In this document: in pieces, positions 4,559 through 51,577 of the stretch
Position numbering within the stretch: position 1 is the stretch's first letter
How the letters are laid out: each line of letters opens with the position of its first letter
Source: Bacillales bacterium UBA2753
Lineage (GTDB): Bacteria; Bacillota_I; Bacilli_A; RFN20; CAG-826
DNA length: 54,615 bases
Assembly (NCBI GenBank): GCA_002353275.1
Contig: DEJH01000021.1
Span: 1-54,615, forward strand
Reading direction: 5' to 3'
Notes under the pieces: generated by a model
Databases searched by the model: none
Told to the model about the DNA's origin: nothing
What the model saw: the letters and a program-made list of their open reading frames with translations, nothing else
Program-made: the position numbers and the translations under genes

Positions 4559-7500
4559 ATATCGGTCCTTTCAAAGAAACCAAGGGTTTCAAGCGATTCA
4601 ATTGCATTTTTTAAATAACTATAATCTGTAATTGGCCATTTATAACCAAGGTGATACAAACTCTTATTAGTGAATTCATTATCACTCAAAATGAATGAGT
4701 GAGTGTGCATATCACTTGATGAATATGAAATTAGAGAAGAAACAAGCATGCTCTTAGATTCATCTAACATCATCTCTTTCATCGAAGCGAGGAATTCATC
4801 ATCAGGAGTAACTTCAATGTTAAAGCCAAGTTCATTTAAAACAGCGATAATATCTCCCATCTGCACCATATGTGAATTAGCGGAATGGAAGACAGTAAAT
4901 TTAGATGGAGTCTTGGCTAAAAGAATAATCGTTTTAGCGACTTCGTCAATTGGAGAGAAGTCAACTTCCACATCCATCGAATTAACAGGGTACTTTTTAA
5001 GAGTGACATATCCTTTTAAATCTCTCATGAAGCCATTAGTAATCGAGTTAGCTTGGAACTCACCATCTTTTTGTCGGCTCATTAAGTTACCGACACGGAT
5101 AATCTTGCCGTCTAATTTACCTTCATCAACCGCATTTAATAAGGCTTTTTCAGCATCAAATTTAGAGTGGACATATTTATTAGAGACATCTTGACCAAAG
5201 TCTAACATATCTTCTTTCATCCTGAAGGATGGCGCAAATTTCTCATCGATATTTTCTCCAGCAACGGATAAGGTGGAGATTTGGATTAAACGAGCGCCTT
5301 TCTTCTCAGCGATATTAATTAAATTTTTCACTCCACCGACATTAACTTGTTCAATGATGTCACTATTAGCGAAATGTTTAACAATCGCTGCAGAGTTAAT
5401 GATTAAATTAAAGTCGTAATCTTTTAATTTCTCATAAAGCGATTCATCTGTGACATCTCCATCAACAATTTCAACATATTCATTGACTTCATCAATTAAT
5501 GGGGAATCAAAATAATAGGCTAATAAAGCTAGGAGACGATCTTTCGCGTTAAGTTTGCCTCCTCTAATCAAAGCGACAACTTTCACTTTTTGATCTAATA
5601 ATTCTTTAAGAATATGAATTCCTAAAAATCCAGTTGAGCCAGTGAGAAGAACTTTTTTCACTTCAAAATCAATTTTGATATCGTTAACTTCACTGACGAC
5701 GTTATGGGAAAGAGAAGATAATTCTGCTTTTTCTTCTTTCTTTTCCTCTTTAGTTTCAACTTTACCTCCTGAAATAGAAGCGATATATTCTTCAAGTTCT
5801 AATACTGTGGAATGATCAAAGACATCACCATAAGCAATTGGTAATCCCATATTAAGCGCAAGCATCGCAACTTTAGAAACGCTTAAAGAAGTTCCTCCCA
5901 TTTCAAAGAAATCATCATCCACTCCAACTTCTTCTTTTCCAAGAGCTTTCTTAAATAAAGTTAAGAGTTTTTCTTCTAATTCGTTAGAAGCTTTCTTCAC
6001 TTCTTTATGTTCGACTTTCATTTCGATTTCTGGAAGTGATTTTTTATCAATCTTACCATTTGGGGTAAGTGGGAATTTATCTAACTGCATCACCACTTTT
6101 GGAACCATATATGGAGTTAAGTATTTACTCATATGATTAAGTAAATCATCTTTATCAACCTGGCTAGAGGCGGTGAAATAAGCGGCTAGATAATCGCCTT
6201 CGACTTGGCTTTGTTTTACTAAGATGATGCTTCTAGTAACTGTTTTATAAGAGTTAAGGACTCTTTCGATTTCATCGAGTTCTACTCTTAAGCCTCTTAA
6301 TTTGACTTGGTTATCAAGTCGACCAAAGAATTCAATATTGCCTTCACTATTAATTCGAGCCATATCACCACTTCGATAAGCTTTTATTCCATTAACTTCA
6401 ATAAATACTTCTTTAGTTTTTTCAGGCATTCCTAAATAACCTAAACCAACAGATTCTCCAGCGATTGTTAAATCTCCAATCGCGTTAGTTGGCAATAAGT
6501 GTCCTTTTTTATCAAGAATATAGGTTTTAGTATTAGCGACTGGTTTACCAATCGTCATATATTTATCTTTTACTAAAGAATAAGTTGCGGTAATCGTTGT
6601 TTCAGTTGGACCATAACCGTTAAGAATATTGGCATTAACTCCTAAATTTCTTAAGCGATTACATAATTCCATTGGAACAGCTTCCGCTCCCATATCGAGG
6701 TATTTAAATCCTTTTAGAGCCTCAACAAAGACATCGATGTCTAATAAGTTAGACACGAAGGAAGGAGTCATAAACATGAATTTCACTTTGTTATCTTTCA
6801 ATGTCTTAGCGAGCAACATTGGGTTTTCAATTTCTTCTTCACTAGCAATAACTGCGGTATAACCATGCGTTAAAGGAATGAATTCTTCTTGTAAAGAAGC
6901 ATCGAAAGAAAGAGAGGCAAATGAGCAAGAAACACATTCTTCTCCAATATCGCGATATGCGTGAGTGGCTAAGTTAGAGCCATCACTAACATAGTTAGCC
7001 AAATTCTTATGAGCGATCATCACTCCTTTTGGTCGACCAGTCGAGCCAGAAGTATAAATGACATAAGCTAAGGAAGAAAGTGGAATCTTCACATTAGGAT
7101 TTTTATCTTTTTTATTTTCTAAAATATCTTCAATTGCCAAAGCTTTAACTTTTGCTTCTTTAATTAAAGCTTGTTTTTCTTTAATGATATCTTTAGTGGA
7201 GATCAAATATTTGCTTCCTGAATTAGAGATGATATAACTCACTCGATCATCAGGATATTTAGGATCAACTGGGACAAAAGCTCCTCCACTTTTAACGATA
7301 CCTTGTCTAACAACATAGGATTCTTTAATTCGAGGCATGAACATGATTACACATTCACCAAGTTTAAGATTGTTATCGAGTAAAGTATGAGCGACTTTAT
7401 TAGCGCCACTATTGAGCTCTTGATATGTTAATTTACCGTTTTTAGCGATAACAGCAACTTTATCAGGGTGTTTGTCAGCTTTTTCTTCAAGAAGAATATT

Positions 7501-49983: not shown

Positions 49984-50934
49984 TTATTTAATTAAATCTT
50001 TAATTACTTCACTAGCGATGATTAATCCCATCGTTGGTGGGACAAAAGAAGTTGAGCCAGGAGTGGCTCTTCTTTTTTCGTCTTTAATATCAACTTTAAT
50101 TGGTTCTTCTTTAGAAAACACCACTTTTAAAGATGGAATATTTCTTTTTCTTAATTCATGACGAAGAATTTTGGCTAATGGATCAACACTGGTTTTATAA
50201 ATATCACTAACTTCTAATTTAGTTGGATCGATTTTATTGCCTGCTCCTAAAGCAGAAATAATTGGAATATTAAGAGAATTTGCTTTAACTACTAAGCTAA
50301 TTTTTGCAGACATATTATCCGCACAGTCAATAATGTAATCATATTGAGATAAATCGAATTCATCTTCGTTATTAGGAAGATAGAATTTCTTAATCGCTTT
50401 CACTTTAATAATAGGGTTAACATCTTTTAGATGTTCTTTCATTACATCAACCTTATATTTACCAATAGAGGAATATGAGGCTACAAATTGACGATTGATA
50501 TTAGTCACTTCCACTTTATCAAAATCAACAATATCAATTTGACCAACACCACTTCTAGCAAGAGAATCAACGCAGTGCCCACCTACTCCTCCAACGCCAA
50601 AAACAATAACTTTGGAATGATAAAGTAAATCCATCTTTTCTTTTCCAAATATTGCTTCGGTTCTCCTGAATTGCTCCTTCTTTTTATAGTCATTCTTTTT
50701 CTTTTCTTCTAATAATTCATCAACTCTTTGAACACCAAAAAAGTCGTTAGCGTCTAAAGAATATTGACGTAAAAGTAAGAGAATCTTTTCATAAGACATC
50801 TCTGAATGTCCTTTTTCAATATTTGTGATTACGGATTTATGAGAGTAACCTAAAGATTCCGCTAACTCTTGTTGAGTTATGTTTTTATCTTTTCTGAGTC
50901 TTTTAATTCTTGGGCCAATTGTTTCTTTAGACAT
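49984..50934 (-). CDS. tcdA: XRE-type HTH domain fused to a TcdA/CsdL-like ThiF-family E1 domain
   Basis: N-terminal IKRLRKDKNITQQELAESLGYSHKSVITNIEKG. Then FRRTEAIFGKEKMDLL..VIVFGVGGVGGHCVDSLARSGVGQIDIVDFDKVEVTNINRQ. ATG at 50934 preferred over the extended ORF to 50988. Confidence 0.75.
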   Translation of the reverse strand: MSKETIGPRIKRLRKDKNITQQELAESLGYSHKSVITNIEKGHSEMSYEKILLLLRQYSLDANDFFGVQRVDELLEEKKKNDYKKKEQFRRTEAIFGKEKMDLLYHSKVIVFGVGGVGGHCVDSLARSGVGQIDIVDFDKVEVTNINRQFVASYSSIGKYKVDVMKEHLKDVNPIIKVKAIKKFYLPNNEDEFDLSQYDYIIDCADNMSAKISLVVKANSLNIPIISALGAGNKIDPTKLEVSDIYKTSVDPLAKILRHELRKRNIPSLKVVFSKEEPIKVDIKDEKRRATPGSTSFVPPTMGLIIASEVIKDLIK

Positions 50935-51053
50935 AAATATTCTATTCCTAAATAAAAGTGATAAAATAATGAACATAAGAGTTCTCACAAGCAGTTGGGT
51001 TATCTAGCTAGGGAGGCTCTTTTATTTTTAAAAGAATGTGTTATAATATAGCC

Positions 51054-51108
51054 ACAAGAACGGAGCCTTGCAGACACTTAGTTGGTGCTAGTCGTTAAGG
51101 GCTCTTTT
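51054..51108 (+). ncRNA. Candidate antitoxin sRNA 1, convergent with and antisense to the 3' UTR of toxin-like ORF 1
   Basis: Extended -10 TGTTATAAT (51039-51047). Conserved AAGAACGGAGCC. Hairpin GAGCCTT...AAGGGCTC followed by TTTT. Ends approximate. Confidence 0.5.
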
Positions 51109-51197
51109 CATTTGAATAGCAAAGCTATCAAAGCTAATAGGAGACAAATCAAGCCAATCCTTAGAAGTTTTAACACTTCTTTGAGAAAGCCTCTCAT
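51108..51197 (-). CDS. Unannotated 29-aa hydrophobic peptide, candidate type I toxin (MRGFLKEVLKLLRIGLICLLLALIALLFK)
   Basis: GAGGTG RBS 6 nt upstream of the ATG at 51197-51195; TGA at 51110-51108. Paralog 240 nt away. Confidence 0.6.
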   Translation of the reverse strand: MRGFLKEVLKLLRIGLICLLLALIALLFK

Positions 51198-51289
51198 TGT
51201 AATCACCTCGCTTTCTGTGCCAGATTGCAAGGTCTCCGCTCCGAGTTTTACTGACTTTTCTTTGTCAAAAAATATGTTATAATGTAACC

Positions 51290-51345
51290 AAGAACGGAGC
51301 CTCTCAGACTACTTAATGGTTACTAAGTCAGAGACTTCTTTTTTT
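51290..51345 (+). ncRNA. Candidate antitoxin sRNA 2
   Basis: Extended -10 TGTTATAAT (51275-51283). AAGAACGGAGCC. Hairpin CTCAGACT...AGTCAGAG followed by CTTCTTTTTTT. Ends approximate. Confidence 0.5.
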
Positions 51346-51346
51346 A

Positions 51347-51433
51347 TCAAATTAGGAGGCCTAAAAGACAAACAAGAAGGCAAATGAGAGTGATTTTAAA
51401 AAGCTTCAATAGCTCTTTCGAATCTTCTTTCAT
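51347..51433 (-). CDS. Unannotated 28-aa hydrophobic peptide, candidate type I toxin (MKEDSKELLKLFKITLICLLVCLLGLLI)
   Basis: AAAGGAGG RBS 9 nt upstream of the ATG at 51433-51431; TGA at 51349-51347. Promoter TTGTCT-17-TATAAT at 51515-51543 on the minus strand. Confidence 0.6.
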   Translation of the reverse strand: MKEDSKELLKLFKITLICLLVCLLGLLI

Positions 51434-51552
51434 AGCAGGTTACCTCCTTTCTATATTTCTATAGTCTAAGAGGTATTCCGTTCTGAGTTTTATAGACTTT
51501 GCTTTGTCTTAATTATTATAAAATAAAGTTGTTTGTTAGACAACTAAGATTT

Positions 51553-51577
51553 AAAAGAAAAGAAGGCTTAGCCTTCT
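51553..51577 (-). terminator. Terminator after the ABC ATPase gene
   Basis: AGAAGGC-TAA-GCCTTCT followed by TTTCTTTT on the minus strand. Confidence 0.7.

Follow-up and report, generated by a model that had tools for sequence, protein, structure and literature searches.

The window, a 54.6-kb stretch of DNA from Bacillales bacterium UBA2753 (contig DEJH01000021.1, of gut-metagenome origin) to which all coordinates below refer, carries two tandem modules in each of which a minus-strand gene for a short hydrophobic peptide faces a convergent gene for a predicted antisense small RNA (sRNA). We estimate at roughly 70% the probability that each module is a type I toxin-antitoxin (TA)-like pair, the peptide being the predicted toxin and the sRNA the predicted antitoxin RNA. 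Across homologous modules from other uncultured bacteria, the open reading frame (ORF), its Shine-Dalgarno (SD) sequence and the antisense promoter and terminator are conserved, two alternative helices of the peptide mRNA both covary, and blocking the mRNA's 3' side switches the predicted fold from one helix to the other in silico. An earlier sequence-only reading of the window had recognized the two modules and their general layout; the present analysis goes beyond it in the covarying 5'-3' helix of the mRNA, an anti-SD element, the promoter logic of the predicted toxin gene and a downstream gene with an XRE-type helix-turn-helix (HTH) domain.

The modules of the window and their homologues

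The two minus-strand mini-ORFs that the sequence-only reading proposed, both missed by the ORF track, lie exactly where it placed them and are conserved in the family: ORF1 (51108-51197, 29 codons and TGA) encodes the peptide MRGFLKEVLKLLRIGLICLLLALIALLFK, and ORF2 (51347-51433, 28 codons and TGA) the peptide MKEDSKELLKLFKITLICLLVCLLGLLI. Their supposed paralogy is borne out by a peptide identity of 54% and by modules that can be aligned over ~240 nt. An SD sequence precedes each ORF on the minus strand as described (GCGAGGTG at 51204-51211 for peptide 1, GAAAGGAGGTAA at 51440-51451 for peptide 2), and both peptides have the charged N-terminus and the hydrophobic tail of transmembrane length that had been noted. 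A 40-aa version of ORF1 starting at TTG, taken from the mechanical listing, was rejected as an upstream extension that reads through the SD; homologues start at ATG or TTG 6-9 nt past the SD.

On the plus strand, the extended -10 element TGTTATAAT is found at 51039-51047 (sRNA 1) and 51275-51283 (sRNA 2), followed 7-8 nt later by the box CAAGAACGGAGCCT (at 51055 and 51289, with no other exact copy in the window), a hairpin and a T-run touching the stop codon (51105-51108 and 51339-51345), all in agreement with the first description. Predicted sRNA 1 (~55 nt, 51054-51108, plus strand) comprises an unpaired 5' segment ACAAGAAC, a hairpin GGAGCCUU...AAGGGCUC and a U4 tract that overlaps the stop codon of ORF1 by 1 nt. 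Predicted sRNA 2 (~56 nt, 51290-51345, plus strand), whose start is placed 7 nt after the -10, comprises the 5' segment AAGAACGGAG, a hairpin and a U7 tract, and ends 1 nt short of the complement of the stop codon of ORF2. The anticipated layout, an sRNA of ~55 nt antisense to the 3' untranslated region (UTR) of the peptide mRNA, is thus matched in sequence at ~55 and ~56 nt. A second conserved non-coding block, the leader block GAGTTTTANNGACTTTNCTTTGTC, occurs twice in the window versus 0.02 times expected, and the non-coding parts of the two modules are better conserved than the ORFs. Chance is excluded as the origin of this layout by the 117 unique homologous modules found elsewhere.

These homologues came from several searches. 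A profile of the two window peptides, whose first row was the 40-aa TTG-extended ORF1, retrieved two metagenomic ORFs that match in their C-terminal 29 residues, and the contigs of both carry the same non-coding blocks as the window. A 5'-leader pattern gave 11 matches in the genome collection, eight of which are true loci, all in metagenome-assembled genomes labelled Erysipelotrichaceae, Bacilli or Bacillales and several from rumen samples; the other three (Acidobacteriaceae, Bacteroidales and Deltaproteobacteria) have no module and were treated as chance or leader-only matches. A looser leader pattern yielded 111 metagenome loci, ~27 of them without a module and treated in the same way. An nhmmer model identified 139 modules in 95 loci, of which 120 are full-length (the filter demanded similarity up to the -10 region) and 117 unique, in tandem arrays of up to five copies (L011 and L013; four copies in L012, L037, L081 and L096). 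All homologues are from uncultured organisms. Because both scan patterns were derived from the mRNA leader only, they did not by themselves select the fetched loci for a conserved ORF or antisense promoter.

Searches for known relatives were negative. The leader pattern had no match in the viral contigs, and distant blastn against plasmid and phage collections likewise gave none; Rfam returned only noise and no family at E values up to 10; Pfam and NCBIfam, queried with six peptides at E values up to 10, returned no match except two chance-level ones far below the cut-off; and PADLOC yielded no meaningful result for the peptides. When 1.84 billion representatives were searched exhaustively with a profile, 28 proteins were recovered, mostly over-extended ORF calls, and all 10 that were looked up are metagenome-only entries that are unnamed or called "hypothetical protein". 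Most of the public gene calls (P0001-P0029) begin well upstream and continue across the 5' UTR and SD to give 'proteins' of 52-141 aa in which the last 29 residues are the sole conserved part, and a few calls are correct at 29 aa. In the literature, no paper on type I systems in Erysipelotrichaceae was found. The modules appear to constitute a previously unannotated family of type I TA-like kind, outside every described family.

Conservation of the peptide gene and of the antisense gene

The sequence-only reading had made its case depend, beforehand, on the mini-ORFs being kept as ORFs in homologous loci, and kept they are. An SD and an ORF of 23-37 codons, most commonly 29 (61 ORFs) or 27 (26 ORFs), occupy the same position in 109 of the 117 unique modules, with the SD correctly spaced in all intact copies. 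The 109 ORFs start with ATG (82), TTG (24) or GTG (3) and encode 102 distinct peptides, and the substitutions among them are of the coding type: entropies at the three codon positions are 1.15, 0.65 and 1.39 bits, the third position being the most variable, the ratio of nonsynonymous to synonymous substitution rates (dN/dS) has a median of 0.32 and a pooled value of 0.41, and the +1 frame is open in none of the 109. Synonymous codons are used at conserved residues, the invariant Cys18 being encoded by TGT (39) or TGC (20) and the Leu positions by up to six codons. The consensus peptide, M-K/R-D-x-x-K-E-x-L-K-L-L-K-I-A-L-I-C-L-L-L-S/C-L-L-A-L-L-x-K, has on average ~5.8 charged residues in positions 1-13 and 0.13 in positions 14-28, and its terminal residue is K or R in 51 of 61 cases. 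The remaining eight copies have a damaged ORF, in which the start is changed to ACG or ATA, or an in-frame stop or a frameshift has arisen. Judged by these substitution patterns, the ORF is a genuine gene, and what a type I system needs on the toxin side, a short ORF with an SD for a hydrophobic membrane-type peptide under purifying selection, is found in the modules. One reverse frame, open in 94 of the 109 spans, was considered as an antisense ORF and rejected, as neither a start nor an SD is conserved in it and it is located past the sRNA terminator; its openness follows from the NTN codons of a leucine-rich peptide.

The antisense side is conserved as well. The convergent extended -10 promoter described in the window is maintained throughout the family, with a -10 box in 117 of 117 unique modules (TATAAT in 113, TATACT in three and TACAAT in one) and a TGn extension in 96, where n is C (37), T (32), A (25) or G (2). 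Such free variation of n is the signature of selection on an extended -10 element, not on the neighbouring sequence. Read on the sense strand, the bases of the antisense -10 give TATAAC, TATAGC or TATATC, without the essential final T. In most modules the -10 and the box are a constant 8 nt apart. When the start is set at +7 after the -10, the predicted sRNAs have a median length of 58 nt, with a U-run of at least four in 101 of 109 and with complementarity to the 3' UTR that is perfect by construction; the hairpin and U-run ending at the stop codon, seen first in the two window modules, recur in 97 of 102 predicted sRNAs as a hairpin of at least 8 bp ending no more than 3 nt from the U-run. 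The modules accordingly carry the signals of a cis-encoded antisense RNA with its own promoter and its own terminator, the other component expected of a type I system.

Loss of the two parts is asymmetric. The antisense promoter is perfect and TG-extended in all eight copies whose ORF is damaged, it is missing beside no intact ORF, and the sole modules without the promoter region (L083 and L018) also have a dead ORF. Decay of a putative toxin gene while the gene for its candidate antitoxin persists is the pattern predicted for a TA pair. The occurrence in tandem arrays and at scattered chromosomal sites would be further traits shared with type I systems.

Alternative helices of the peptide mRNA

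Predicted mRNA 2 (module 2, 51286-51508, minus strand) extends from GACAAAG to the end of the 3' arm and is homologous along its full length to the 117 unique modules; predicted mRNA 1 (module 1) spans 51050-51266 on the same strand. In the minimum free energy (MFE) folds of both, the 5' UTR pairs with the 3' UTR (z = -5.5 for mRNA 2 and z = -2.65 for mRNA 1). The leader of mRNA 2 begins with a mini-hairpin, GAC-AAAGCAAA-GTC (51495-51508, minus strand; counterpart in mRNA 1 at 51253-51266), and continues into a 5' arm, AGAACGGAATACCTCTTAGACTA (51462-51484, minus strand), which is backed by the inverted repeats I16 and I19 and by covariation and is complementary both to the 3' arm and, via TACCTC, to the SD. 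The 3' arm, TAGTCTGAGAGGCTCCGTTCTTGGTT (51286-51311, minus strand), lies opposite sRNA 2, which covers it, and corresponds to the box in reverse complement, so that the box is simply the complement of one strand of the long-range helix. In mRNA 1 the 5' arm GGAGCGGAGACCTTGCA (51226-51242, minus strand) pairs with a 3' arm at 51054-51075 on the minus strand.

Covariation was counted for these three structures in an alignment of 91 non-redundant modules. The mini-hairpin GAC-N8-GUC is paired in 99.6% of cells, its middle pair being AU in 65 sequences, UA in 22, GU in two and GC in one. Pairing of the 5' arm (GGAACGGAG.ACCUCnnnn...) with the 3' arm (...nnnnGAGGCUCCGUUCU) reaches 93.6% and 73.7% in its two parts, with three or four pair types at several pairs. 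Taken jointly, the mini-hairpin and the long-range helix are paired in 84.5% of cells versus 34-53% when the partner is slid, 19 of their 24 pairs change on both sides with 231 compensated cells, and the observed score was reached in none of 500 shuffles. The competing helix between the anti-SD (ACCUCnn) and the SD with its flank is paired in 91.7% of cells versus 42-60% when slid, and one of its pairs occurs as UG (28), CG (27), GC (17) and AU (16). Both helices covary, and the same 5' nucleotides therefore have two different partners. An alignment-free comparison agrees, in that cognate 5':3' duplexes average -27.2 kcal/mol versus -20.5 kcal/mol for non-cognate ones and the cognate partner has a median rank of 4 of 91.

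Ensemble calculations on the same sequences reproduce a switch between the two helices. In the full-length mRNA, pairing between the 5' and 3' arms has a probability (P) of 0.76 (exceeding 0.5 in 83 of 91 sequences), and the SD remains 21% unpaired. Blocking the 3' UTR in silico raises pairing of the 5' arm with the SD from P = 0.21 to P = 0.90 (86 of 91) and lowers the unpaired fraction of the SD to 4%. A further element lies inside the ORF, where the near-invariant UGY-CUY-YUN codons for Cys-Leu-Leu (A4 columns 159-164; about 51380-51388 and 51144-51152 in the window) contain a CCUC or UCUC string. This string may act as a second, ORF-internal anti-SD, whose partners are near-invariant and so beyond the reach of covariation.

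The mechanism that we infer from these pairings, including the direction of the switch, presupposes that both RNAs are made. A minus-strand mRNA of ~220 nt would encode a peptide of 28-29 residues, charged in residues 1-13 and followed by a leucine-rich segment of ~15 residues with the invariant Cys, the last residue usually being Lys, while a constitutive-looking extended -10 on the plus strand would supply an sRNA of ~56 nt directed against the mRNA 3' UTR and ending at the stop codon. The 5' end of the mRNA would form the 3-bp mini-hairpin, followed by the 5' arm with its ACCUC, and during transcription the local hairpin of 5' arm and SD would keep the nascent mRNA silent. Once made, the 3' arm (GAGGCUCCGUUCUU) would capture the 5' arm over ~20 bp and free the SD at least partly. 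Where the sRNA covers the 3' arm, the 5' arm would return to the SD and the resulting RNA duplex would be a likely substrate of RNase III; where the sRNA is absent, the long-range helix would form and the peptide could be made, presumably to insert into the membrane and harm the cell, an effect that the sRNA would neutralize.

The first peptide mRNA, that of module 2, has a candidate promoter at 51515-51543 (minus strand; -35 TTGTCT at 51543-51538, a 17-nt spacer and -10 TATAAT at 51520-51515) that scored 10 of 12 in the promoter scan and lies 6 nt upstream of GACAAAG. Among 82 first or solo modules, a sense -10 with at least five of six matches is present in 44 and is TG-extended in 32, commonly 6-7 nt before GACAAAG. 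Internal copies such as module 1, whose sense promoter overlaps the promoter of sRNA 2, have weak sense -10 boxes and may for that reason depend on read-through. A sense terminator suggested by the scan at 51073-51052 was not adopted, being a minor hairpin inside the 3' arm.

Known systems, rival explanations and genomic neighbours

As the sequence-only reading proposed, the layout matches the class of Gram-positive type I systems with 3'-overlapping RNAs (described in PMC8594479). By analogy, the mechanistically closest known case would be bsrG/SR4, in which nt 1-35 of the bsrG mRNA pair with nt 232-262 (helix P1), and SR4 bound on the mRNA's 3' side frees the 5' end and lengthens the SD helix from 4 to 8 bp (PMC3834814). 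The modules share with it a small hydrophobic peptide, a convergent antisense RNA over the 3' side of the toxin mRNA and, in silico, the architecture of a 5'-3' closing helix combined with a 3'-overlapping antisense RNA and an SD sequestration that is reinforced when the 3' side is occupied. They differ from it in lacking peptide or RNA homology (to TxpA/BsrG-type toxins or SR4 RNA in Pfam, NCBIfam and Rfam), in an sRNA of ~56 nt with a single hairpin where SR4 has 183 nt and four stem-loops, in an overlap confined to the 3' UTR and the stop codon, and in an unrelated, shorter peptide (28-29 residues) whose charged part is N-terminal; moreover, they are arrayed in tandem between chromosomal genes of uncultured Erysipelotrichaceae-like bacteria and are known from sequence alone. 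Convergent transcription, a 3'-end overlap and a hydrophobic toxin are likewise common to txpA/RatA, bsrE/SR5, yonT/SR6 and SprG/SprF (grouped in PMC8594479), to none of which the modules show homology in Rfam, Pfam or NCBIfam. The antisense RNAs of these systems, in contrast to those predicted here, which stop at the stop codon, also overlap the ORF (PMC8594479), and decay of the duplex by RNase III, as for txpA and yonT (PMC3531473), would be the outcome to expect in both cases.

The modules have no Hok family match and no mok-like leader ORF, their antisense promoter is directed at the 3' UTR, and with hok/Sok they have only the principle of a 5'-3' fold-back in common. In hok/Sok and aapA1/IsoA1, the 5' region is the target of the antisense RNA, and the mRNA stays inert in its 5'-3' helix until it is trimmed at the 3' end. 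In the modules it is the 3' arm that the antisense RNA covers, so the 5'-3' helix is more likely the form that the antitoxin prevents. The use of long-distance 5'-3' pairing and successive SD-sequestering structures to time translation is a likeness to both systems (PMC9841398, PMC6733600). The fst/RNAII (par) and SprA1/SprA1as systems resemble the modules in a bidirectional terminator, in a 5' structure that masks the ribosome-binding site and in an antisense RNA that overlaps the 3' UTR only, not the ORF, and their functional pairing takes place outside this overlap, in the 5' regions (PMC8594479). In the modules, the sRNA's 5' box and the mRNA's 5' arm share one sense and are not complementary, so 5' pairing of the fst type does not exist here; nor do the peptides match an Fst-type family in Pfam or NCBIfam.

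The remark that the peptides resemble no familiar family stands, whereas their 'reversed polarity', with the charged end first, is not without precedent. ShoB, ZorO and DinQ of E. coli, with 26-29 residues, have a polar or charged start and a hydrophobic remainder. Their sequences are unrelated to those of the modules and their hosts are Gram-negative, and their antisense genes are divergent, non-overlapping and located 5' of the mRNA (PMC8594479).

Four other explanations of the modules were weighed. The peptide might be a non-toxic small membrane protein, regulatory or structural, under cis-antisense control, a proposal that the coding and antisense signals fit equally well and with which the location in ordinary chromosomal intergenic regions agrees. 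It is nonetheless unlikely, because tandem amplification of diverged copies is unexpected for a harmless gene, because 7% of copies have been inactivated (by loss of the start, nonsense mutation or frameshift) with the antisense promoter left perfect, and because of the two layers of SD control and the weak TTG start in 24 of 109 ORFs; multiple tandem copies, ORF decay, SD control and TTG starts are together typical of genes whose product must stay off. At the opposite extreme, we give almost no credence to a non-coding repeat, be it a structured RNA or a DNA repeat, with a fortuitous ORF. The leader, box and promoter are indeed better conserved at the DNA level than the ORF, and the leader motif occurs in spacers of tRNA clusters without any ORF, yet 93% of copies keep the frame open in one and the same position although the peptides are of 102 different sequences, third codon positions are the most variable, dN/dS is ~0.3-0.4 with synonymous codons at conserved residues, and the SD is correctly spaced in every intact copy.

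The remaining two explanations give a role to the HTH-fusion gene that follows some of the arrays. In one, the module is a leader-peptide or attenuator element gating read-through into that gene, with translation of the ORF to its stop melting the adjoining terminator hairpin. A gene with an HTH_3 fusion stands close behind, in the same orientation, in 26 of 84 arrays including that of the window, the stop codon adjoins the 5' flank of the hairpin, and the fused domains (APH, hexapeptide acetyltransferase, hydrolase, NUDIX and ThiF) come from families that include small-molecule-modifying enzymes, genes for which are often inducible. We nevertheless regard attenuation as very improbable: an attenuator would be a single copy always directly ahead of the regulated gene, whereas about two thirds of the arrays precede unrelated genes or none, arrays reach five copies and internal copies precede only another module, a leader peptide needs no 15-residue hydrophobic tail conserved at the protein level, and the universally conserved antisense promoter would have no role. 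Less credible still is that the peptides are exported signalling or bacteriocin-like peptides (compare SHP/Rgg and prgQ/prgX), sensed or regulated by the adjacent XRE protein. In favour of this, an XRE HTH gene adjoins about a third of the arrays, multicopy precursor genes are common in peptide-production loci, and a charged N-terminus, a hydrophobic C-terminus and a length of 25-29 residues recall the precursors of short hydrophobic pheromones. The HTH proteins, however, carry ThiF, NUDIX, hydrolase, Hexapep or APH domains and not the peptide-binding repeat domain that Rgg or RRNPP regulators place next to the HTH, about two thirds of the arrays have no HTH neighbour at all, no transporter or processing genes recur beside them, and SD sequestration combined with an antisense RNA for every copy is foreign to SHP/Rgg and prgQ/prgX systems.

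The type I TA-like reading, which we prefer, has to be held against several results that weaken it. Single sRNA hairpins are not unusually stable relative to shuffled sequence (z from -0.8 to -1.9), so the case for the sRNAs rests on conservation and not on folding energy. RNAalifold, applied to a MAFFT alignment of 48 sRNAs, found no consensus structure, a failure attributable to variable 3' halves of the sRNAs that do not align, and the two strands of the sRNA hairpin covary only weakly, with a median rank of 28 of 102 for the cognate partner by duplex energies. The filter for full-length modules slightly biases the figure of 117 of 117 for the antisense promoter, which three internal partial modules do not contradict. 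As the sequences are related, the shuffle controls overstate the significance of the mRNA covariation, a problem that the slid-partner and cognate-rank controls partly address. In the sense direction the terminator has a poor U-tract, which makes the 3' end placed on the peptide mRNA a tentative one. Lastly, the SD also pairs with the Cys-Leu-Leu codon string in the full-length ensemble (P about 0.23); with the SD no more than 21% unpaired there, the long-range form may not be the translated conformer and could, like that of hok, serve for inert storage.

Arrays of the modules occupy scattered intergenic sites on chromosomes. Several sites recur, with rny (RNase Y) downstream of modules in L081, L017, L034, L120, L069 and L116, fba (class II fructose-bisphosphate aldolase) in L012, L097, L049, L050, L112, L040 and L083, and pnp (PNPase) in L008 and L009, one protein of each type having been confirmed by NCBIfam. 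These housekeeping-gene sites may have been inherited in common by closely related genomes or may be favoured for insertion, and the presence of two RNA-decay genes among the recurrent neighbours is a curious coincidence. In the window, the neighbours of the array are genes for glycosidases and for an ABC transporter. The ATPase gene of the latter ends, just upstream of the promoter of module 2, in a perfect bidirectional terminator-like hairpin (AGAAGGCTTAGCCTTCT, 51561-51577), so that the module array probably forms a transcription unit of its own. In the interval from module 1 to the HTH-ThiF gene, positions 50959-51029 (plus strand) hold what is tentatively a relic third unit, an sRNA and 3' UTR without a toxin gene, consisting of TGATAAAAT (50959-50967) and a hairpin with U-run (50974-51029); the assignment, for which the evidence is weak, draws on the direct repeats D1 and D5, a weak match found by nhmmer with the module model in its 3'-UTR part, and the fold. 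Similar fragments of the sRNA part occur at L053:3148-3218, L024:172-257 and L032:22-138.

The gene downstream of the window array (49984-50934, minus strand) encodes an XRE-type HTH domain fused to a ThiF domain (Pfam HTH_3 and ThiF). A gene with such an XRE HTH N-domain follows in the same orientation in the 26 arrays mentioned above, the 84 being those with enough flank, and in most of the 26 it starts ~30-45 nt past the module 3' arm (for example in L011, L023, L035, L082, L104, L077, L019, L060, L047 and L062, among others). The N-domain is 57-77% identical to that of the window over 71 aa and is fused to varied C-domains: ThiF in the window, and elsewhere NUDIX, Hydrolase_4 (alpha/beta hydrolase), hexapeptide acetyltransferase or an APH-like kinase. 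A functional link between the HTH-fusion genes and the modules is possible. The stronger proposal, that module and following gene form one functional unit in about a third of the arrays, strikes us as quite doubtful. Under it, a repressor that senses a ligand could set the antitoxin:toxin ratio, since the sense promoter of the HTH gene and the sRNA promoter overlap back to back in the palindrome-like ATTATAAC/TGnTATAAT, and could thereby convert a small-molecule signal into membrane damage or dormancy.

The 25-nt leader motif (GTCAAAGAAAAGAC GTTAAAACTCG) is found without an ORF as well, 4-5 nt past the 3' ends of tRNA-Pro and tRNA-Ser(UGA) genes in large tRNA clusters with long spacers (L074:4425-4449 and 4910-4934, L061:51-113, L087:11252, L110:1491, L065:4473, L123:437 and L016:3269). 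The spacers between tRNA genes in these clusters are unusually long, at 100-900 nt, and at L074:9507-9591 and L065:9021-9105 ARAGORN predicts a tRNA whose anticodon has four bases (attt) and to which it assigns no identity. In these organisms the motif may serve as a general signal for RNA processing, stability or protein binding, and its presence in the mRNA leader could link activation of the modules to a general RNA-processing enzyme.

Our results would add a type I TA-like family to what is known of poorly studied, uncultured Erysipelotrichaceae-like Bacilli of the rumen and gut and, as the public gene calls are mostly over-extended or absent, they also correct the annotation of these genomes. 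Across 117 natural variants, covariation by itself traces two helices that have a strand in common and exclude each other, and the modules may serve as a comparative-genomics example of a logic that was worked out biochemically for bsrG/SR4, in which binding of the antitoxin at the 3' end closes the SD. Small (~240 bp), self-contained and available in many orthogonal variants, they are the kind of material from which RNA devices could be engineered (PMC12721322).

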